A stretch of 18,985 bases of DNA from a virus (Duplodnaviria > Heunggongvirae > Uroviricota > Caudoviricetes): the IMG/VR virus record IMGVR_UViG_2734482774_000015, one strand, 5' to 3'. Below the pieces are notes generated by a model, which worked only from the letters and a program-made list of their open reading frames with translations, was not told where the DNA came from and ran no database searches. The first letter of the stretch is position 1; each line of letters begins with the position of its first letter. Of the stretch, positions 1-16,093 are shown one piece after another. Made by a program: the position numbers and the translations under genes.

Positions 1-513
1 GGAAGATGCTGACTGAGCCGACGACGCGGCCTGTCCGGCTGACGTGCTGGCTGCGCGTGCTGAGCCTGCAGCATCAGTCGCATGGGTTGCCGCCTCACGT
101 GCTGATGTGCCGGCATCGCTGGCTGACTTCTTCGCGGCTGCCGTGTTCTGTGCCACCGCGGACGCGTTACGCGCCACCTCTTCCACCATCAGTTCAAAAC
201 GGCGCAGTGCCTCAGGACGGGCATCATCCTCCGTCATGGCACCGAGAAAATCATTCAGCGTACCGGGTCGGGAATCTTCATACACGGTGATGGTCCCGGC
301 ATGTGACGGCGGGAATCCCTCCACCAACAGAATAACGCTGTACTGCCCGTACTCAACGTCCATGCTGTAACGCCCGGCTTCATCCGGATTTTCTGAGGCC
401 AGCGTGTTCACCACCACCGTGGTGCTGTTACGTTTTGCTTTCAGCTGGATTGTGCAGTTCTGTACCGGTTTTCCTGTGCCGTCTTTCAGTACACCTGAAA
501 TCTTTACTGCCAT
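1..513 (-). CDS. stf: Side tail fibre protein Stf, N-terminal 171 codons (partial; runs off window start)
   Basis: Minus-strand translation from the ATG at 513 reads MAVKISGVLKDGTGKPVQNCTIQLKA...NTLASENPDEAGRYSMDVEYGQYSV..., recognised as λ Stf (orf-401) N-terminus. No stop before the window edge, so it is absent from the ORF track. Confidence 0.85.
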   Translation of the reverse strand, partial: MAVKISGVLKDGTGKPVQNCTIQLKAKRNSTTVVVNTLASENPDEAGRYSMDVEYGQYSVILLVEGFPPSHAGTITVYEDSRPGTLNDFLGAMTEDDARPEALRRFELMVEEVARNASAVAQNTAAAKKSASDAGTSAREAATHATDAAGSARAASTSAGQAASSAQSASS

Positions 514-524
514 ATTCACCCCAC

Positions 525-552
525 AAAAAAGCCCGCCTGAACCGGCGGGCTG
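525..552 (-). terminator. Rho-independent terminator immediately upstream of stf
   Basis: Minus strand reads AGCCCGCCGG-TTCA-GGCGGGCT followed by TTTTTTGTGG: a GC-rich stem-loop plus U-run. Confidence 0.6.
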
Positions 553-573
553 TCATAACACTGTGTTACCTGG

Positions 574-753
574 CTACCAGCCGTCGCTCAGTTTCTGACG
601 AAACGCCGGGAGCTGTGTGGCCAGTGCCCGGATGGCTTCAGCCCCCGTTTTCACACGAAGGTCGATGCGGCGACCAAATCGTTGTAAATCCCCGTAAAGG
701 CAGATGCGCGCCATGCCCGGTGACGCCAGAGGGAGTGTGTGCGTCGCTGCCAT
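574..753 (-). pseudogene. I: Tail assembly protein I remnant: 59 codons, then in-frame TAG
   Basis: Minus-strand ATG at 753 gives MAATHTLPLASPGMARICLYGDLQRFGRRIDLRVKTGAEAIRALATQLPAFRQKLSDGW*, which matches the λ gpI N-terminus as recalled. The full protein is about 223 aa. The stop is followed directly by the pre-stf terminator. Confidence 0.8.
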
Positions 754-1427
754 TTGTCGGTGTACCTCTCTCGTTTGCTCAGTTGTTCAGGAATATGGTG
801 CAGCAGCTCGCCGTCGCCGCAGTAAATTGCGGCGTGATTCGGCACTGATGAACCAAAACAGCACAGCAGCACATCGCCCGGCTGTGCCGCTGACAACGGC
901 ACCTGATACAGCCCCGTCGCCTCCAGATTGCGTTTCACCCACGAAGCATGGCCGCCATTGTCACCAAGAAAATCCCCGCCCTGCGACATAGCGATGGAAA
1001 GAGCAGGTATTGATTCGTAGTACGCCAGCATTTCAGAAAGGATCGCATCCAGTTTCCTTATCGGAAAATAGGCCTGGTCATAGTTGCGATCCACCCGAAA
1101 CTGGAACTCGTGATAATCATCATCGAGCTGAATGAAGTATTTACACCCGACCAGTTTTGCCAGGTCGAAACAGGCATTACGGGCGTAAAAAATTGAGCGG
1201 CGGTCACAGAAATTATCGGCTTCGTCAAAACGACTGGCGATATCGGCTTTGGAAAACACCAGCACCTGTTCACCAAATTCAGCCATGTACTGATGCCGTG
1301 TCTTATCTTCATCATCAACAACGATAAAAATTTTCCCGGTATAGCCAGCACGACGCAACGTCCGGTAAGTCAGAACTTTGTCCGGTCGCCCGTGAGTCAG
1401 AATAAAGGCGCAAAAATCATCACGCAT
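651..1427 (-). CDS. Chimeric ORF: N-terminal GT-A-like (DxD) domain fused in frame to the C-terminal NlpC/P60-like part of λ tail protein K; probable deletion fusion
   Basis: The C-terminal ~90 aa (LEATGLYQVPLSAAQPGDVLLCCFGSSVPNHAAIYCGDGELLHH...AFTGIYNDLVAASTFV) look like the gpK C-terminus and overlap the I start as K does in λ. The N-terminal ~170 aa (FILTHGRPDK...GKIFIVVDDEDKT...IQLDDDYHEF) resemble a family-2 glycosyltransferase pattern. The likely start is the ATG at 1427 (MRDDFCAF), with GAGGAGGAGG 4 nt upstream and an ATGCGTGA overlap with the upstream gene's stop. Confidence 0.55.
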   Translation of the reverse strand: MRDDFCAFILTHGRPDKVLTYRTLRRAGYTGKIFIVVDDEDKTRHQYMAEFGEQVLVFSKADIASRFDEADNFCDRRSIFYARNACFDLAKLVGCKYFIQLDDDYHEFQFRVDRNYDQAYFPIRKLDAILSEMLAYYESIPALSIAMSQGGDFLGDNGGHASWVKRNLEATGLYQVPLSAAQPGDVLLCCFGSSVPNHAAIYCGDGELLHHIPEQLSKRERYTDKWQRRTHSLWRHRAWRASAFTGIYNDLVAASTFV

Positions 1428-2211
1428 ATTCCTCCTCCTCACCACCATGCATGATCTCCACCATGCGCTGCGTCATCCGGACAAATCCATTTTCAATAGC
1501 CTGCTGATAATCAATGATCACCAGCGCCGACTCCTCGAAAAAACACTGAATTTCAGCGGGGGCGTGAGCGTAATAGTCCGCAATTCTGCTGAAATTAAAC
1601 ACCGTGTGACGTTCTGCCGCACACAGGAGGAATTTCTCAATATCAGGCTCAAGGGAAGCCAAACGTATCCGGCTGATCAGCTCCTGCGTTTTCGTATCGT
1701 CGTACAGTTCACTGATATCCGGTTTACCGCCCGACGGCTCATAAACAGGCGTATCAATTTTCGTCGTATACGGCTCCTCCTCATTTCCTGTACCGGGCAA
1801 AACATCCGTCAACAGTTCATCAATTTCTGTCGGGATGAAGCCTGTCAGGGAGACATCAAAATCAGCATTGATTAGGTCCGACAGCTCCATCCGCAACAGA
1901 TCTTCATCCCAGCCAGCATTCATCGGCAGGCGATTATCTGCCAGGCGGTACGCCTTTTTCTGCTCATCCGTCAGGCCAGACAGAACAATGACCGGAACAG
2001 AATCCATTTTGAGCATTTCAGCCGCCATAACACGACCGTGACCCGCAATAATTTCGCCCTTTTCGTCAATCAGCACCGGATTAGTCCAGCCGAATTGCTT
2101 AATACTTTCTACCAGTTGTGCCACCTGCTCAGGGCTGTGCGTCCTGGCGTTGTGCGCATACGGTGACAATTCTTGTAATGGGCGATAGACTATCTTTAAT
2201 TTCTCGCTCAT
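1420..2211 (-). CDS. ParB-like nuclease domain protein (263 aa)
   Basis: The N-terminus (YRPLQELSPYAHNARTHSPEQVAQLVESIKQFGWTNPVLIDEKGEIIAGHGRVMAAEML) has the ParB N-terminal domain pattern including a GxGR arginine motif. AAGGA lies 4 nt upstream of the ATG. It sits in the post-lysis cargo position. Confidence 0.7.
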   Translation of the reverse strand: MSEKLKIVYRPLQELSPYAHNARTHSPEQVAQLVESIKQFGWTNPVLIDEKGEIIAGHGRVMAAEMLKMDSVPVIVLSGLTDEQKKAYRLADNRLPMNAGWDEDLLRMELSDLINADFDVSLTGFIPTEIDELLTDVLPGTGNEEEPYTTKIDTPVYEPSGGKPDISELYDDTKTQELISRIRLASLEPDIEKFLLCAAERHTVFNFSRIADYYAHAPAEIQCFFEESALVIIDYQQAIENGFVRMTQRMVEIMHGGEEEEYA

Positions 2212-2348
2212 ACATCCTTGCTTTATGAATAAAACGCACCCCAGCAGCCAGTGCTACTGGGGGCGGAGGTGTTGCTGGTAAAGTTAGGTATTGGATCAAT
2301 GAGTGAGTCAACATAATATTAAACTCACAATTATAAATCAGCCATATA

Positions 2349-3806
2349 TTAGGAGCGCCAAAAAAAACCTGAAAACAAAATAATAACAGGATAAATTTCA
2401 AGGCGACCAAGAATCATAGCTATGCACATTAAATATTTTGCAATGTCATTAAGCACTCCGAATGACGATGCAGTAGCCCCAAAACCTAATCCCATATTAT
2501 TAATACATGCAGCCACTGTTGCAAATGATGTAAGAAAATCATATCCCATACCATTTAACACCAGTATAAAAAACACCGTGAAGAGAGTATAAAGAAAAAA
2601 GAAACTCCATACAGACCTCATTACACGATCTGTAACTATCTTCCCTCCTACATTTACACTCAACAACGCTCTGGGATGAGAAAGCTGATTTATCTCGTGT
2701 TTGCTTTGTTTGAAAAGTATAAGAAATCGAAGTGACTTAATTCCACCACAAGTTGAACCTATACATCCCCCAAAGAAACTTGACAACAGCAAAAACACTA
2801 TCGTGTGCGTGGGCCAGCTTGCATAATCCTGCATAGCTAAACCATTATCAGTGAGCATGGAGCTGGCAAGAAAAAACGAATGAATAAAACTTCCATGCAA
2901 GTCATACATACCTATATGCCAGACCTGGAAAGAGGTAACAATGATCACCCCTAAGGCTATTAACAGAAAGAAACGAAGTTCAATATCTCTGATTAAAGGT
3001 TTTATCGTTTTCCTGCTAATAACAATATACCAAAGAGTGAAGTTGAAAGCCGATAGCAGGGAAAAAGAACCAGCCACCAGCTCAACCAAATAGTTATTAA
3101 AATATCCGATACTCTCGCTATGAGTTGAGAAACCACCAAGCGAAACTGTGGAAATCCCGTGACAAATAGCATCAAACAAAGGCATTCCTGCAAGTCTATA
3201 ACAGACAATACAAGCAATACCTAATAAAGAATAAGTTATCCACAGTGTCCGTGACGTATCGGCCAGGCGGGGAGTGAGTTTGTCATCCTTAAATGGCCCC
3301 GGCATTTCTGACTGATAAAGCTTTGCACCACCAATACCCAATAATGGCAATACAGCAACCGCCAGAACAATAACTCCTAAACCACCTATAAAATTTAACT
3401 GTGACCGATAGTACAAATATGCCCGAGGTAATGAACTAACATCATCAATTACAGTTGCTCCTGTTGTTGTTATTCCAGAAACCCCTTCAAACAGAGCATC
3501 AATGAACGTTAAATTAAGTTCTGAGTCAATCCATAAAGGGAATGCACTAATAACAGAAAACAAAATCCAAAACATTACAATTATAATAAACCCATCACGG
3601 GTACGTAATTGAATGCCAGATTTCTTAGTTGTATACCACGCTCCGCCACCAATGCAAAAAAATATAACGAAAGTTATAAAGAAAACGAACAGGCTTTTTT
3701 CTTTATAAAACAATGCTACAACCATTGGTGGCAACATTGAAAGACTATAGAGCCAAACCAGGAACCCACACATATGAGTAACAACTCTTACATGAGATGT
3801 ATTCAT
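2349..3806 (-). CDS. trkG: TrkH/TrkG-family K+ uptake transporter (485 aa)
   Basis: Multi-pass hydrophobic protein with repeated pore-like GxGG segments, recognised as E. coli TrkG (Rac prophage cargo). The region is visibly AT-rich compared with flanking phage genes. The track ORF starts 18 nt upstream at a TTG; the ATG giving MNTSHVRV is preferred. Confidence 0.88.
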   Translation of the reverse strand: MNTSHVRVVTHMCGFLVWLYSLSMLPPMVVALFYKEKSLFVFFITFVIFFCIGGGAWYTTKKSGIQLRTRDGFIIIVMFWILFSVISAFPLWIDSELNLTFIDALFEGVSGITTTGATVIDDVSSLPRAYLYYRSQLNFIGGLGVIVLAVAVLPLLGIGGAKLYQSEMPGPFKDDKLTPRLADTSRTLWITYSLLGIACIVCYRLAGMPLFDAICHGISTVSLGGFSTHSESIGYFNNYLVELVAGSFSLLSAFNFTLWYIVISRKTIKPLIRDIELRFFLLIALGVIIVTSFQVWHIGMYDLHGSFIHSFFLASSMLTDNGLAMQDYASWPTHTIVFLLLSSFFGGCIGSTCGGIKSLRFLILFKQSKHEINQLSHPRALLSVNVGGKIVTDRVMRSVWSFFFLYTLFTVFFILVLNGMGYDFLTSFATVAACINNMGLGFGATASSFGVLNDIAKYLMCIAMILGRLEIYPVIILFSGFFWRS

Positions 3807-3943
3807 ATCTAAATATTCTTTCAATTATAACCACCTTGCTGCAATATTATGATTATACTGTATAAAATTTAACTCCTCTTAGATCTTACTTCACTGTTCC
3901 TTATGAAACAATCATCAAAATGAATCATATTGTAGTTAAGATT

Positions 3944-5117: not shown

Positions 5118-5704
5118 AACCCCACCTCGCAGACAAAGCGGGTGTAAATTGAGGGAATACAACGTATCGCAAAAAAGCAGAAACGTAACAGACTCGGAGT
5201 CAGTGAATAACTCAGGTATTGGGTTATCAGCTAATATCGAGACTCAAAAAATGGAAAAACCTGCTCGACGGCGGGTTTAAGCTGTGTGACGAAGTAACCA
5301 CTCTTAACAGCATAACCAATTTTTTACGTACGTAAACCACTAAATGATATTTGCGAGAATGCTACCGAGTATTGAAAACACCACTACAAATACATAAGCA
5401 AATCTCAACAAATAACCAACAAATAATTTCCAGCGTTATTTTTAGCTGGTTTAAATTGAACCTTCAAATTATAGAGCACTTATAAATAACAGCCATTAAT
5501 ATAAATTGGCTAATAGATTTATTTTTATTCAGCCAAGAGCCATGAATAGGATTCGATAGAAAAAGTTCAGATAAAAATAGAGATCTACTTCACAAATCAA
5601 ATGAGAAACCAAAACTTACATCTTGAAATAATCACATTGATTAGATGAATATTTATCGCGCAGTGACATCATTTTTTAATAATAGTTCAAAAAAAGGGCT
5701 CACG

Positions 5705-6787
5705 ATGAAAAAATTAACAGTGGCAATTTCTGCTGTAGCTGCATCAGTACTGATGGCGATGTCTGCTCAGGCAGCTGAAATTTATAATAAAGACAGTAAC
5801 AAGCTGGATCTGTACGGGAAAGTTAATGCTAAGCACTACTTCTCCTCTAATGATGCAGATGATGGTGATACTACTTATGCCCGTCTTGGCTTCAAAGGTG
5901 AAACCCAAATCAACGATCAACTGACTGGTTTCGGTCAGTGGGAATATGAATTCAAAGGCAACCGCGCTGAATCTCAAGGTTCCTCCAAAGATAAAACCCG
6001 TCTTGCCTTCGCTGGCCTGAAATTCGGTGACTACGGCTCCATCGATTATGGCCGTAACTACGGTGTAGCATACGATATTGGTGCATGGACCGACGTTCTG
6101 CCAGAATTCGGTGGCGATACCTGGACCCAAACAGATGTATTCATGACTGGTCGCACCACAGGTGTTGCAACTTATCGTAACAATGACTTCTTTGGTCTGG
6201 TTGATGGTCTGAACTTTGCTGCTCAGTATCAGGGTAAAAATGACCGCACTGACGTAACTGAAGCTAATGGTGATGGTTTCGGTTTCTCCACTACTTATGA
6301 GTATGAAGGATTCGGTGTAGGTGCAACCTATGCTAAATCTGACCGCACTAATAATCAGGTTATCTACGGTAACAACAGCCTGAATGCATCTGGTCAAAAT
6401 GCTGAAGTATGGGCAGCTGGTCTGAAATATGATGCGAACAACATCTATCTGGCTACCACCTATTCTGAAACCCAGAACATGACTGTTTTTGGTAATAACC
6501 ATATTGCCAACAAAGCACAAAACTTCGAAGTAGTTGCACAATATCAGTTCGACTTCGGTCTGCGTCCGTCCGTTGCTTACCTGCAATCTAAAGGAAAAGA
6601 CTTGGGTGCGTGGGGTGATCAGGACCTGGTTGAATATATTGATGTAGGTGCAACCTATTACTTCAACAAAAATATGTCCACTTTTGTTGATTACAAAATC
6701 AACCTGATTGATAAGAGCGATTTCACGAAAGCATCTGGCGTTGCTACCGATGATATCGTTGCTGTAGGTATGGTTTACCAGTTCTAA
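5705..6787 (+). CDS. nmpC: Outer-membrane general porin, OmpC/OmpF/NmpC family (360 aa incl. signal peptide)
   Basis: Signal peptide [23 protein letters not shown], Tyr/Gly-rich beta-barrel repeats and C-terminal ...VYQF. It is convergent with Q and antisense to the late operon, as in DLP12. The track ORF starts 60 nt upstream; the ATG at 5705 is preferred. Confidence 0.85.
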
Positions 6788-6975: not shown

Positions 6976-7359
6976 TTAATTAGAGTTATTAACAACGATA
7001 TCCATCTCTAACCGGATATCTAATGCCATTAACATCCCTTCAATTATGCCCTCAGCCTTCTGTAACCTTTTCCCGATATAACCATCAGAGCAGCAATGCT
7101 TACCTGCCAGTGACATGAATGTCATACCGACTACATAATAATCTACTAATAAATCGTGCAAATCGCTGTTGTTCTTTTTCAGACGGGCCATGCACCCGCA
7201 AATAATCATCGCGTCATCGTCACAACATTGCGGGCGAGATTTTACTTTTGAAGTAATTAATCCCTTAAAACCGGCGGCAATGGACGACCAGGTCACATCT
7301 TCATGATTATTAGCCGCCCACGCTCCCCAACGCTCAAGAACCATCTGAATATCACGCAT
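6976..7359 (-). CDS. quuD: Late-gene antiterminator Q (127 aa)
   Basis: [22 protein letters not shown]... with Cys-rich putative zinc-binding region ([16 protein letters not shown]). Lies between the nin region and the lysis genes. The track ORF starts 5 codons upstream at a TTG. Confidence 0.85.
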
Positions 7360-7444
7360 CAACTTACTCCACAAAAATCAGACCAGAACGCCAATTACAA
7401 GCAAAAATCAACGAAACAGTATTAGTTGATTGTTATCTCTGACT

Positions 7445-8849: not shown

Positions 8850-9096
8850 GCTTCACCTCCGCAGAGGCCAAACGCTGGATGCAAAAAATCGCAGGTGCAT
8901 TTCTGCATCTGTGAATGGAGAAGATAGGTTGGTTTGTATGTGCGCATAACCCCAAATCTTCATACGTTACGGTATCAAGGTAATAATCACTATTTACCTT
9001 TAGCCATTCAGTAATAAGCCTTCTCTGGCGGTTTAATGAATCACCAGACATCTGACCTGGTGATGAAAATCGCATATATGCTATGGCTTTTTTCAT
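8809..9096 (-). pseudogene. ybcK: Serine recombinase (YbcK-like) N-terminal remnant: about 49 homologous codons, then unrelated sequence
   Basis: [49 protein letters not shown] carries the resolvase catalytic Ser/Arg motif. The remaining ~46 codons are not recombinase-like and overlap the ybcN start. A full serine recombinase would be several hundred aa. Confidence 0.7.
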
Positions 9097-10752: not shown

Positions 10753-11678
10753 AAATCCACCCCATAAATCCAGTCAGTGTTTGTCAGGTCGAGTTTTGAT
10801 TTTCCGGCTGTCACGCCAGCCTGTTGCTTGTTACGGTTGATTTCGAGTTGGGTCCACTTGTCGCGGAGTTTGGCCGGACATAGCACGTTACCGGACCAGA
10901 AGTTGTCCTGGCATGCCCAGCGGAACAGCACGCACATGTCGCGGTGGTTACGTCCGTCACGTTCACGCATCAGGCGGATATCGTTAGCCCACCCTGCAAA
11001 ATTCGGTTTTCTGGCTGATGGCGCGATGGTCTTCACCATGTCAAACATCCACTCTGCGGCGGTCAGGTCTTCTGCTGTCCCCCACTTGCTGCCGCTCTGA
11101 ATTGCAGCATCCGGTTTCACCACAGGAAGATCGTTTTCTGGCTGGTCAGAGGATTCGTCAGAATTCTCGGACGAAAAAGGTTTTATATTGTCTTTTGTTA
11201 GTTTGTCTTTTGTGTTTACCTGATTCGGGTAAACGCCTTTACCTGATTTGGGTAAACTTTTCTTACCTGATTCAGGTAAATTTACCTCTTTCAGGTAAAC
11301 TTTATTTTTCTTACCTGATTCGGGTAATGTTGACCATTCACTGACCACATTATTAATGCCGGTATTCCGCCCGCTCTGAATAAGAATCCCACGCTTTACC
11401 AGAACACTTTTTGCAGCAGAACACTTGTGCGGCAATATCCCGGTCAATTCGGACAGTTGCTCGTTGCTCACCCAATCCAGTTTTTTATTAAAGCCATATG
11501 TTTTGCGCATGACAGCTAGGAAGACCAGAAGCTGGTGCTGTGTTAATCCGGCCAGCATCACAGCTTCCAGCAACTCATTTGCAATGCGCGTATAACCATC
11601 ATCGAGATCTGCCACGCGCGGCTCCTTTTGTGCCGCATCCGGCACTGGAAAATTGAATATCTCAGCAGTGTTTGCCAT
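10749..11678 (-). CDS. O: Replication initiator O-like protein (about 309 aa); origin iterons lie inside the gene
   Basis: N-terminal domain ADLDDGYTRIANELLEAVMLAGLTQHQLLVFLAVMRKTYGFNKKLD... resembles the λ O DNA-binding domain. The repeated LPESGKK peptides reflect the iterons. ATG at 11678 is preceded by GGGAGG. The track ORF starts 30 codons upstream at 11768, which remains an alternative start. Confidence 0.85.
   Translation of the reverse strand: MANTAEIFNFPVPDAAQKEPRVADLDDGYTRIANELLEAVMLAGLTQHQLLVFLAVMRKTYGFNKKLDWVSNEQLSELTGILPHKCSAAKSVLVKRGILIQSGRNTGINNVVSEWSTLPESGKKNKVYLKEVNLPESGKKSLPKSGKGVYPNQVNTKDKLTKDNIKPFSSENSDESSDQPENDLPVVKPDAAIQSGSKWGTAEDLTAAEWMFDMVKTIAPSARKPNFAGWANDIRLMRERDGRNHRDMCVLFRWACQDNFWSGNVLCPAKLRDKWTQLEINRNKQQAGVTAGKSKLDLTNTDWIYGVDL
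11215..11328. repeat. Replication origin: five about 19-bp iterons (consensus TTACCTGATTCGGGTAAAC, each an inverted repeat TTACC..GGTAA) next to an AT-rich tract (about 11175..11214)
   Basis: Direct repeats at about 11215-11234, 11238-11257, 11263-11280, 11281-11300 and 11311-11328, inside the O-like coding sequence, with the AT-rich stretch AAAAAGGTTTTATATTGTCTTTTGTTAGTTTGTCTTTTGTGTTT alongside, as in oriλ. Confidence 0.8.
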
Positions 11679-12604: not shown

Positions 12605-12708
12605 AACAACCTCCGTGGTTAATTTGAATCAAGATTAAAACTATGGTTGTTTTTAGTCAACAACCATTTTCGTTTGATGGAATAAAACCTTGGTTGTACA
12701 TTTGGACT
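12605..12708. promoter_or_regulatory. oR-like divergent control region: pR for cro (minus strand, -35 TTGACT, -10 TAATCT) and a likely leaderless pRM-type start for cI
   Basis: Minus strand reads TTGTTGACTAAAAACAACCATAGTTTTAATCT, then GGAGG and the cro ATG. Dyad elements ATGGTTGT...ACAACCAT and TTAATTTGAATCAAGATTAA are present. The cI ATG at 12709 has no recognisable Shine-Dalgarno, as for λ cI. Confidence 0.65.
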
Positions 12709-13398
12709 ATGAAAACAACACTCTCAGAAAGACTTAAAGAAGCCAGATTAGCGCGAGGCCTTACACAAAAGGCGCTTGGGGATTTGGTCGGGGTTAGCCA
12801 AGCTGCTATTCAGAAAATCGAAACAGGGAAAGCTAATCAAACAACTAAAATCGTGGAGATCGCGAACGCTTTGGGTGTGCGCGCAGAATGGTTATCTTCT
12901 GGCGTTGGAAATATGTCAGACAGTACAGTGCAACCAATACAATCAACTGTCAGCCATTCCAAATACTTCAAGATTGACGTTCTTGATATAGAAGTCAGTG
13001 CTGGGCCGGGAGTCATCAACCGTGAGTTTGTAGAAGTTCTACGCTCGGTTGAGTACTCGTTTGACGATGCTCGTCACATGTTCGATGGTAGGAAGGCGGA
13101 AAATATCCGCATCATTAACGTGCGTGGTGACAGCATGTCAGGAACGATCGAACCAGGTGATCTGCTGTTCGTTGATATCACAGTTAAATCTTTCGACGGT
13201 GATGGTATCTATGCGTTTCTGTACGACGACACAGCCCATGTAAAGCGCCTGCAAATGATGAAGGATAAGCTGCTGGTCATCTCTGATAACAAAAGCTACT
13301 CACCGTGGGACCCGATCGAGAAAGACGAGATGAACCGGGTGTTCATCTTCGGTAAGGTTATTGGGAGCATGCCGCAGACATATAGGAAGCATGGTTAA
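12709..13398 (+). CDS. cI: CI-type prophage repressor with LexA-like S24 autopeptidase domain (229 aa)
   Basis: N-terminal HTH (LTQKALGDLVGVSQAAIQKIETGK), candidate Ala-Gly cleavage site (EVSAGPG), catalytic Ser in RGDSMSGTIEPGDLLFVD and Lys in HVKRL. The upstream ATG at 12643 would place coding sequence over the operators and is rejected. Confidence 0.9.
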   Translation: MKTTLSERLKEARLARGLTQKALGDLVGVSQAAIQKIETGKANQTTKIVEIANALGVRAEWLSSGVGNMSDSTVQPIQSTVSHSKYFKIDVLDIEVSAGPGVINREFVEVLRSVEYSFDDARHMFDGRKAENIRIINVRGDSMSGTIEPGDLLFVDITVKSFDGDGIYAFLYDDTAHVKRLQMMKDKLLVISDNKSYSPWDPIEKDEMNRVFIFGKVIGSMPQTYRKHG

Positions 13399-13520
13399 AG
13401 TGAGGCTAAAAAACAGTTACAGCAATAGGCCTGTTGTTTTTCTTTAAACACGCAGTGTTAAACCGCTCTTTGAGATGCGGAGTAATGAGATGGAAGACTT
13501 GAATCACATAAGGGTTAGTG

Positions 13521-14270
13521 ATGGAGTGCGTAGCGAGCAGCAATAGTGCAATACCTAATGTCGTTGAAGTAATACGTCGCATCAATGAAGGTTCCACTCA
13601 GCCATTTCTTTGCAAATGTGATGATGGGCAGTTGTATGTTTTGAAGTCAAAACCATCAATGCCCCCGAAAAATCTCTTAGCTGAGTTCATTTCGGCGTGT
13701 TTGGCTAATGATATCGGCCTTCCTTTACCTGACTTTAAAATCGTATTTGTGCCAGAGGAACTTATAGAGTACTCACCTGATCTGCAGCAACAAATTTGTA
13801 CAGGATATGCCTTTGCTTCATTGTTCATTGACGGTGCAATAGCGTTAACGTTTACGCAGTCAAGAAACGAAACGATCATCCCAGTCGAACAGCAAAAATT
13901 AATCTATGTTTTTGATAAATGGATATTAAATGCAGACAGAACGCTTACTGACAAAGGTGGAAACGTTAACATCATTTATGACATCAGTAACGATAAGTAT
14001 TATCTGATTGACCATAATCTCTCATTTGATCAGAATGCTGGACCTGAAGATTTTTCTGTGCACGTGTACGGCCCTGGTAACCGCAAATGGCAATATGATT
14101 TAGTGGATCGCGTAGAGTACCGCCAGAGGGTCGTTAACAGTTTACACAAGCTTCCTGCTATCCTTGACGAAATTCCAGAAGAGTGGATAGTAGATGAGGA
14201 GTTTTTACCTTTTGTCTGCACTACGCTAGACAAAGGTGATTGTGATGAATTTTGGAGCGCAATAGAATGA
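13521..14270 (+). CDS. Uncharacterised protein with HipA-like / kinase-like catalytic motifs (249 aa); first gene of the cassette occupying the rexA slot
   Basis: Intact ORF 120 bp downstream of cI on the same strand. Motifs FDKWILNADRTLTDKGGN and IIYDIS resemble the HipA_C catalytic and Mg-binding Asp loops. AAGGG lies 7 nt upstream of the ATG; an alternative GTG start lies at 13518. The family assignment is inference from motifs only. Confidence 0.65.
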   Translation: MECVASSNSAIPNVVEVIRRINEGSTQPFLCKCDDGQLYVLKSKPSMPPKNLLAEFISACLANDIGLPLPDFKIVFVPEELIEYSPDLQQQICTGYAFASLFIDGAIALTFTQSRNETIIPVEQQKLIYVFDKWILNADRTLTDKGGNVNIIYDISNDKYYLIDHNLSFDQNAGPEDFSVHVYGPGNRKWQYDLVDRVEYRQRVVNSLHKLPAILDEIPEEWIVDEEFLPFVCTTLDKGDCDEFWSAIE

Positions 14271-15094
14271 CAACTCCATGCCTATATAGCATCGTTCGCT
14301 ATGCGCCTTATGCGGAGACTGAAGAGTTCGCAAACATAGGCGTACTTCTGTGCGCGCCAAAAGAAAATTACTTTGATTTCCAGCTCACAAAGCGAAATGA
14401 CTCTCGTGTAAAGAATTTTTTCCATGATGATTGTATTTTCCCTGTAGCAAAAGACTCAATACAAAGAGAACTACAGTTCGCAAAAATGCATGCGACCCAG
14501 ATTGTTGGACATCAACAACTTGCACAATTCTTCAGATATTTTACAAACAAAAAAGAATCAATTTTTCAGTTCAGTTCTACGAGAGTGATTCTCAGCGAAA
14601 ACCCAAAAGAAGAGCTGGCCCGCATTTACAATAAATATGTAAACCACTCTGACTACACAAAAGAGCGCCGTGAAGATGTTCTAGCCAGAGAGCTAAAACG
14701 AAGTATCGATAGAATAGATGGATTGAAGAACGTCTTCAAACAAGCAACCATTGATGGGTATTTCGCAAAGTTCTCAATGCCATTGGTCGCCAAGAAGCAT
14801 GACAGGATCCAATGTGCCATCAAACCTCTGGCATTCACTCAAGCTGAACCAGGAAAAATGATGGAGCATAGTGATACTTGGGTGATGAGAATAACTCGAG
14901 CAGCAGAAGAAAACCTGCTTTCACTTGATGACATTTTATTCACAATTGAAACTCCTGAATCACCAAACTCAGGCCAAAGCAAAGTTATTGACATCATAAA
15001 GAGAACTATGGATGCTAAGAAAATAAATCATATACCTGCATCCAACCACAAAGAAACTATTGATTTTGCAAAAAAAATACTTCCCCAAGTTTAA
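14267..15094 (+). CDS. Uncharacterised protein with DUF3037-like N-terminus (275 aa); second gene of the cassette, translationally coupled to the first
   Basis: The ATG overlaps the upstream stop (ATGA); GGAG lies 9 nt upstream. The N-terminus CLYSIVRYAPYAETEEFANIGVLLCAP matches my recollection of the DUF3037 signature. Followed by a strong terminator. Confidence 0.65.
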   Translation: MTTPCLYSIVRYAPYAETEEFANIGVLLCAPKENYFDFQLTKRNDSRVKNFFHDDCIFPVAKDSIQRELQFAKMHATQIVGHQQLAQFFRYFTNKKESIFQFSSTRVILSENPKEELARIYNKYVNHSDYTKERREDVLARELKRSIDRIDGLKNVFKQATIDGYFAKFSMPLVAKKHDRIQCAIKPLAFTQAEPGKMMEHSDTWVMRITRAAEENLLSLDDILFTIETPESPNSGQSKVIDIIKRTMDAKKINHIPASNHKETIDFAKKILPQV

Positions 15095-15128
15095 AATTTA
15101 TTTTTGTATGTGATATTCCTTATTAATA

Positions 15129-15156
15129 ACCCGGCCACCGTGCCGGGTTTTCTTTT
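15129..15156 (+). terminator. Rho-independent terminator ending the cI-downstream cassette
   Basis: ACCCGGC-CACCGT-GCCGGGT stem-loop followed by TTTTCTTTT on the + strand. Confidence 0.75.
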
Positions 15157-15288
15157 GCCTCCCCTCATCACACAAACCGCTCAAAAAACCACCATAACCT
15201 CGCTTCAGTTATCGCTATGCGATTCAAGTCACAAAATAAATCCATCCTAAATACAACCAGTTATATCTAAAACAACCAATAAAACAAC

Positions 15289-15326
15289 TTTTGTTGTTGA
15301 CGGTAAAACAACTATAGTTTTAAATA
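15289..15326 (+). promoter_or_regulatory. oL/pL-like promoter-operator, a near copy of the pR core
   Basis: TTGTTGACGGTAAAACAACTATAGTTTTAAATA here versus TTGTTGACTAAAAACAACCATAGTTTTAATCT at pR. Upstream operator-like repeats ACAACCAG, ACAACCAAT and the palindrome CAACTTTTGTTG lie at about 15252..15296. Confidence 0.6.
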
Positions 15327-15723
15327 GGTTCATCGCAACAACACAACGATACGGCAACCACCTGATTCACCGTTGCGATGACCGCTTAGATCCGCAGTTT
15401 GAATTTCAGCAGGCTTCGGGGAGTGCGAGGGGTGAAACGGACGCGTGAACGTCGGTGTGACCAGCTGAAATCAACTCAACATTTCATACCTTAGTCGCTT
15501 CAACGAGGCGGCTTAGTTATGACAACCGGCGGCCATCCACCGCCTGAATACGCGCAGAAGTCTCTATATGTTCAGCAGCCCAGCTTCACAGCGATGCCAG
15601 AGTCTGTAGTGTCAGATGATGACCGTACTCAAACATCGGGTTGAGTATTATCTTACTGTTTCTTTACATAAACATTGCTGATACCGTTTAGCTGAAACGA
15701 CATACATTGCAAGGAGTTTATAA

Positions 15724-16005
15724 ATGAGTATCAATGAGTTAGAGTCTGAGCAAAAAGATTGGGCGTTATCAATGTTGTGCAGATCCGGTGTCTTGTCTCC
15801 ATGCAGACATCACGAAGGTGTTTATGTAGATGAAGGTATAGATATAGAGTCGGCATACAAATATTCCATGAAGGTTTATAAGTCTAATGAAGACAAATCC
15901 CCATTCTGCAATGTGCGAGAAATGACTGATACCGTGCAAAATTATTATCACGAGTACGGTGGAAACGATACTTGCCCTCTCTGTACAAAACATATAGATG
16001 ATTAA
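15724..16005 (+). CDS. ea8.5: Ea8.5-like protein (93 aa)
   Basis: Size and position (upstream of orf-55/xis) as in λ. Cys/His pattern (CRHHEG ... CPLCTKH) is consistent with a metal-binding fold. Preceded by AAGGAG. Confidence 0.8.
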   Translation: MSINELESEQKDWALSMLCRSGVLSPCRHHEGVYVDEGIDIESAYKYSMKVYKSNEDKSPFCNVREMTDTVQNYYHEYGGNDTCPLCTKHIDD

Positions 16006-16093
16006 ACCCAATATTACATAACAATCCTCGCACTCGCGGGGATTTATTTTATCTGAACTCGCTACGGCGGGTTTTGTTTTATGGAGATGATAA

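Follow-up and report, generated by a model that had tools for sequence, protein, structure and literature searches.

A deletion junction between tail gene I and the side-tail-fibre gene of a cryptic lambdoid prophage integrated at att-lambda

The DNA analysed here, called the window below, is a stretch of 18,985 nucleotides (IMG/VR virus record IMGVR_UViG_2734482774_000015), which spans a prophage from int to the side-tail-fibre gene stf and ends inside the latter. Over its whole length it corresponds to a prophage located at the lambda attachment site, beside ybhC: at its int end the window runs into ybhC, and the sister elements are bounded by ybhB/bioA. The features of the region described here, all located on the minus strand, are remnants of the tail genes K and I, a short spacer with a hairpin, and the 5' part of stf.

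The gene I remnant (577..753) starts at the ATG 753..751 and reaches codon 59, TGG (579..577), after which comes the stop TAG (576..574), just as an earlier note on this DNA had described for gpI. Its product agrees with lambda gpI residues 1-59 at all 59 positions, both by tblastn and by direct comparison, and scores 53 bits against the Pfam family Lambda_tail_I (PF06805), the cut-off being 23.8. Only positions 2-45 of the 83 of the profile are covered, and only residues 1-59 of the 223 amino acids found in lambda are present, the complete domain being absent; the 59-codon ORF is a gene fragment. In the RefSeq annotation of relatives, gene I starts at an internal GTG which overlaps the K stop codon, 33 codons downstream of the lambda ATG (window 652-654 as against 751-753), and under this start model the remnant would comprise 26 codons only.

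The stop is followed by the 60-base spacer (514..573) which, in the gene order of lambda and of the related 6EVA prophage described below, separates lom from stf. Up to the stf ATG, 59 of 63 bases are the same as in lambda, and all four differences fall within a hairpin (551..530) which, together with the T run 529..524, makes up an intrinsic-terminator-like element at 524..551. Its stem of eight pairs, seven of them G-C, precedes TTTTTT and is the centroid structure, as found by hairpin search and folding; the post-lom hairpin has the sequence form of an intrinsic terminator and is a predicted one. The next ORF, beginning at the ATG 513..511, is the N-terminus of the side tail fibre (PF08400, 244.6 bits), of which 171 codons (1..513) are present before it runs off the window. 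Over the 153 residues compared, the product is 85% identical to residues 1-153 of lambda orf-401, and the allele is not that of lambda, since it shares 99.7% DNA identity with phage PhiR34_1. The earlier description of a terminator and the stf start codon straight after the stop, in a sequence resembling the region that precedes stf in lambda, was therefore accurate. No match to an Rfam family is above threshold at any point of the window, scar included, and a known RNA at this site was rejected on that ground.

The alignment to lambda across I-J-lom-stf, suggested in the earlier note as a way of defining the breakpoint and any microhomology, fixes the former to the base. With NC_001416 as the reference, blastn returns two blocks: window 929..567 aligns to lambda 14597..14958, the DNA of lambda 14597..14951 and window 929..575 being identical, and window 576..1 aligns to lambda 19587..20162, with 87.5% identity over the full 576-base flank. 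At the breakpoint, lambda gene I reads ...GGCTGG TA TCAGGTACGG and the lambda sequence after lom reads ...TTCTGAT TA GCCAGGTAACAC, while the window reads ...GGCTGG TA GCCAGGTAACAC. Thus, the I side ends at the TA of codon 60 (TAT; lambda 14950-14951), and the stf side opens with another TA, at lambda 19587-19588, separated by a single base from the lom stop (19583-19585), with 4,637 bp in lambda coordinates missing from the window. The crossover, to which no strand is assigned, lies at 575..576, with I-side identity extending to 575 and stf-side identity from 576, and hence within the TGG-TAG codon pair that had been proposed as the recombination point. The stop (574..576) was itself made by the junction, its T and A (576, 575) being common to both parents and its G (574) coming from the post-lom spacer. 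The I/stf join is marked by the 30-mer GAGCGACGGCTGGTAGCCAGGTAACACAGT.

As for microhomology, the only perfect match between the two sides is the 2-bp TA. The junction 10-mer TAGCCAGGTA (567..576, minus strand) corresponds to TA-TCAGGTA in the I-side parent, so that the hexamer CAGGTA follows TA in both parents, one base out of register. This imperfect short homology amounts to 8 of 10 bases alike when a gap or one-base bulge is allowed. The homology switch is abrupt, with its 2-base overlap and no insertion relative to the parents, which identifies a junction and not a point mutation.

A nonsense mutation in I, with J and lom located elsewhere in the element, could in principle produce the same stop, since TAT to TAG at codon 60 is a single-base change. 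Past the TA, however, homology to I stops and homology to the post-lom spacer starts, and no J or lom is found in the 19-kb window from int to stf. Indeed, tblastn with lambda J, Lom, L and M, and with the J, Lom, terminase, capsid and tube proteins of the 6EVA prophage, finds none of them in the whole window. A simple nonsense mutation in I is ruled out by the alignments, and this reading has practically no chance of being correct. The earlier note had allowed for precisely such a stop with J surviving elsewhere; instead, the junction is established by alignment, and the window contains no J, lom, L or M.

The best model of the parent is a near-complete sister prophage at att-lambda in E. coli 6EVA (NZ_CP138428.1; locus L014), which is used as a model and not as the actual ancestor. 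Its gene order runs from int through the cI-like repressor gene, emrE, ybcN, rusA, quuD, the porin gene, essD-rrrD-rzpD and trkG to a ParB_N gene, a glycosyltransferase gene, the terminase, portal, capsid and tail genes and K, and then through I, J, lom, stfR, tfaR and a GGDEF gene to ybhB and bioA. Three collinear blocks are found on L014: window 2300..928 corresponds to L014 221..1593 (1373/1373 bases), window 929..575 to L014 17679..18033 (355/355) and window 576..1 to L014 22755..23330 (575/576), from which it follows that the window is a 6EVA-type element with two clean deletions. The 6EVA prophage resembles the window element in integration site, gene order and the 99.8-100% identity of all three flanks of the two deletions, and differs from it in keeping the deleted segments of 16,086 bp (head genes to K) and 4,723 bp (I-J-lom), in its early-left region and in having ybcK.

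Between the breakpoints of the second deletion, which agree with those derived from lambda (14950/51 and 19587/88), L014 holds I, J, lom and stfR. Relative to this prophage, the 4,723 bp missing from the window comprise gene I from codon 60 to codon 223, all of J and lom, and a single base past the lom stop. Both alignments therefore support the proposed deletion of most of I and all of J, and the loss of lom, which had been suggested with the proviso that the gene was originally present, is borne out as well, since lom is present in the closest undeleted relative and absent from the window. In the 6EVA annotation, the tape-measure gene is frameshifted (L014 12947-16179) and stfR contains an internal stop (L014 22818-26216), so that this otherwise complete prophage may be defective too.

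Upstream of I, the K remnant (654..929, minus strand) consists of lambda K codons 108-199, the NlpC/P60 part, and is 100% identical to lambda. It was previously noted as a truncated K, and a fragment it is, but one fused in frame to a glycosyltransferase gene: the ORF at 651..1448 (minus strand), whose start lies at 1427 in the annotation of relatives, joins the N-terminal part of a TET-associated glycosyltransferase (PF20691) to the C-terminal part of K, as established by alignment and by Pfam matches to both TAGT and NLPC_P60. The fusion is the product of the 16,086-bp deletion, which spans from codon 167 of the glycosyltransferase gene, leaving the first ~166 codons, to lambda K codon 108, and has its crossover at 928..929 (no strand assigned) in a 2-bp microhomology, AA. 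This deletion removed all the head genes and the tail genes up to mid-K. The view that the scar and the truncated K together prevent the prophage from building a tail thus holds as regards the inability, and fails as regards the scar as main cause: the older 16-kb deletion is mainly responsible, for the head as well as for the tail.

Next to the glycosyltransferase gene, at window 1420-2211 (minus strand), lies a gene for a ynaK-like ParB_N protein, which matches the N-terminal third of the PADLOC profile 'MTase_II' with 130 bits. The adjacency of the two genes suggests that the late region may contain a module for DNA modification.

The order of the two events can be established from sister lineages. 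In strains UTME-7 and wlxctx60 (loci L002 and L003), a contiguous match of 99.8% identity to window 2300 to 567 runs across 928/929, where the junction is common to all three base for base, and both strains therefore carry the same 16-kb deletion. They are the only two with such contiguity among the matches listed from 5,426 complete E. coli genomes. Downstream, UTME-7 and wlxctx60 keep gene I to about codon 135, joined to mid-J with the loss of about 1.5 kb and with ACGGT at the joint, and a second deletion of 3,297 bp extends from the 3' end of lom into stf, whose 5' end is gone, with TATGC at the joint. The L002 joints are located at 11045-11056 and 13554-13558, each sharing about five bases (ACGGT and TATGC). 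Derivation of the scar from the state seen in UTME-7 and wlxctx60, or the reverse, was rejected, as each retains sequence lost by the other. Taken together, the shared 16-kb junction and the sequences mutually lost and kept place the I-to-lom deletion after the 16-kb deletion and independent of the sisters. It would then have arisen in the prophage state, in an element already unable to make particles, and the scar, coming after the 16-kb loss, would have no function of its own.

The exact junction was sought more widely. A 121-base junction probe finds no record with at least 80% coverage among the 5,426 complete E. coli genomes; the 20-base junction has no matches in species-representative genomes or in viral contigs, and the one match among metagenome contigs is due to chance, in a high-G+C contig unrelated to the window. 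No phage record has the two flanks joined. A look-up of the exact 59-residue product returned five short contigs from unrelated short-read assemblies (L004-L008), all of them ending exactly at ...GGCTGGTA, and these were rejected as instances of a shared junction because they are partial genes cut by the contig ends. The junction looks private to the source strain or to a narrow clone, and could serve as a lineage marker.

A junction found in no other record searched, between I and stf sequences repeated at a median of 3-4 places per E. coli genome, might be taken for an assembly or chimeric-read artefact between repeated lambdoid sequences. The common stretch is of only two bases, though, or 8 of 10 with a gap, far under any assembler overlap. 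Moreover, both flanks match one sister prophage at 99.8-100% and in the correct order, and comparable real deletions exist in the complete genomes of sister strains. An artefact is accordingly regarded as extremely unlikely.

By far the most probable explanation is a spontaneous internal deletion in a cryptic lambdoid prophage of E. coli, inserted at att-lambda, that had already undergone the 16-kb deletion. The ancestor would have had the order ...K-I-J-lom-terminator-stf-tfa, as still found in 6EVA. An illegitimate join linked the TA of I codon 60 to the TA one base past the lom stop with the loss of 4,723 bp, converting codon 60 to TAG and leaving the 59-codon I stub, the post-lom terminator and an intact stf start. 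The event was probably independent of RecA: the ends of a double-strand break could have been resected and then rejoined at a short homology, or replication could have slipped, and the imperfect TA(N)CAGGTA match between the parents probably aided misalignment. As a consequence, the element has lost J, which serves as tail tip and in host recognition, together with Lom and functional gpI, and stf has been brought nearer to the lysis genes of the late operon.

The mechanism is suggested by the joint itself. No direct or inverted repeats are present around 575/576, and no IS or element ends and no att site are found at the joint, which makes RecA-independent illegitimate recombination the most likely route; an IS- or integrase-mediated deletion was rejected on the absence of repeats and element ends there. 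In E. coli, illegitimate recombination has been described as break resection followed by RecA-independent joining on microhomology (PMC11372144). The lambda Spi-/lambda bio events are similar in forming a novel joint at non-homologous positions, with a short shared sequence and no mobile-element signature. Their junctions, however, typically carry about 9 bp of microhomology (PMC11372144), in contrast to the 2 bp perfect, or 8 of 10 with a one-base bulge, at the joint described here.

The weight of these short matches was assessed against chance, by sampling 200,000 random pairs of junction positions from the parent sequence. Microhomology of at least 2 bp occurs in 16% of the pairs, and the perfect TA is thus within chance. 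A 6-mer shared exactly within 14 bases, with the two copies shifted by at most 2 as for CAGGTA here, is found in 2%, and both features together in 0.4%; as the hexamer test is post hoc, designed after CAGGTA had been seen, these figures are only suggestive of a CAGGTA match beyond chance.

Recombination between two prophages, for example the att-lambda element and Rac, would instead make the joint an illegitimate exchange and thus a chromosomal rearrangement. Prophages at the Rac locus do possess the same trkG-ynaK-glycosyltransferase and stf modules, and the far side of the joint is unseen since the window stops inside stf. The stf flank, however, has 1/576 mismatches with the att-lambda sister as against 8/576 with the Rac-locus copy examined (L012), and both flanks are collinear with one relative (L014), in the same order and orientation. 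An internal deletion, moreover, takes one event and no rearrangement. Such an exchange is considered very unlikely, and the internal deletion is retained.

The comparison with Rac is instructive in other respects. The Rac prophages of E. coli K-12 and the Rac-locus variants of Z217-2 and AJ1 share with the window element a late module of trkG, a ynaK-like ParB_N gene, a glycosyltransferase gene, tail remnants, stf and tfa, which is the gene order of K-12 Rac. Their decay, too, has proceeded through large internal deletions in the interval from the terminase genes to stf, although different ones, from terminase to K in Z217-2 and from terminase to lom in AJ1. The joints in L011 (~11680) and L012 (~9375) share about 5-9 bases by eye, 6EVA being too polymorphic as a parent to fix their lengths. 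Unlike Rac, the window element lies at the lambda attachment site (ybhC to bio side) and not at the Rac site (pinR, uspF, ompN), and has DLP12-type early and lysis genes; its deletion endpoints, one at I codon 60 and the other immediately after the lom stop, match those of no relative examined.

Selection might have preserved the deletion, in which case losing J and lom while keeping stf-tfa would be a step of domestication; this would add to the mechanism given above without replacing it. The right end lies one base past the lom stop, sparing the terminator, the ribosome-binding region and stf, and tfa and parts of stf are kept in several relatives. On the other hand, the UTME-7/wlxctx60 lineage lost the 5' end of stf instead, stfR of 6EVA has an internal stop, and the junction, private to the window sequence, gives no sign of spread; selection is judged very unlikely. 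A broader form of the idea, in which the serial deletions are non-neutral, J, lom and the head genes being shed while stf-tfa (together with trkG and ynaK) are kept under a Q-dependent late promoter, is rated as very unlikely too. If true, the genes kept might act, for instance, as a tail-fibre store for recombination with incoming phages, and the position of the right end, directly behind the lom stop, would reflect that selection.

The deletion is best described as ordinary stepwise prophage decay, cleanly resolved, and there is no sign of a novel type of feature. Its importance hardly extends beyond annotation, where the 59-codon 'tail assembly protein' and the fused K should be read as gene fragments of an element which, from its gene content, would be unable to make particles. 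Together with the sister prophages, it provides a small, cleanly resolved series of junctions illustrating stepwise decay at one locus.

Finally, the element is not lambda. The I-J-lom-stf region is related to that phage through the K and I remnants, 100% identical, and the clearly homologous spacer and stf start, and departs from it in its stf allele and in the rest of the element, which combines DLP12-type with Rac-type genes in a mosaic integrated at att-lambda. Between window positions 2349 and 12304, the DLP12-type genes include emrE, ybcN, ninE, rusA, a quuD-type Q (6976-7374), a porin gene (5645-6787) and the essD-rrrD-rzpD lysis genes, with trkG (2349-3824) as Rac-type cargo. Compared with 6EVA (locus L013), a 2.65-kb ybcK region is absent from the window (at 8947-8949), a 5.3-kb segment including exo-bet-gam is replaced by about 460 bp (region 13397-16046), and about 1.7 kb of the window (15124-13397) is unrelated. 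At 13518-15094 (plus strand) lie a HipA_2-type kinase gene (PF20613, 257 bits) and an overlapping DUF3037 gene, a stretch for which megablast finds no match in the fetched 6EVA or wlxctx60 loci. The pair matches the A and B components of the PADLOC candidate defence system PDC-M66 and adjoins the gene for the cI-like S24 repressor (12643-13398).
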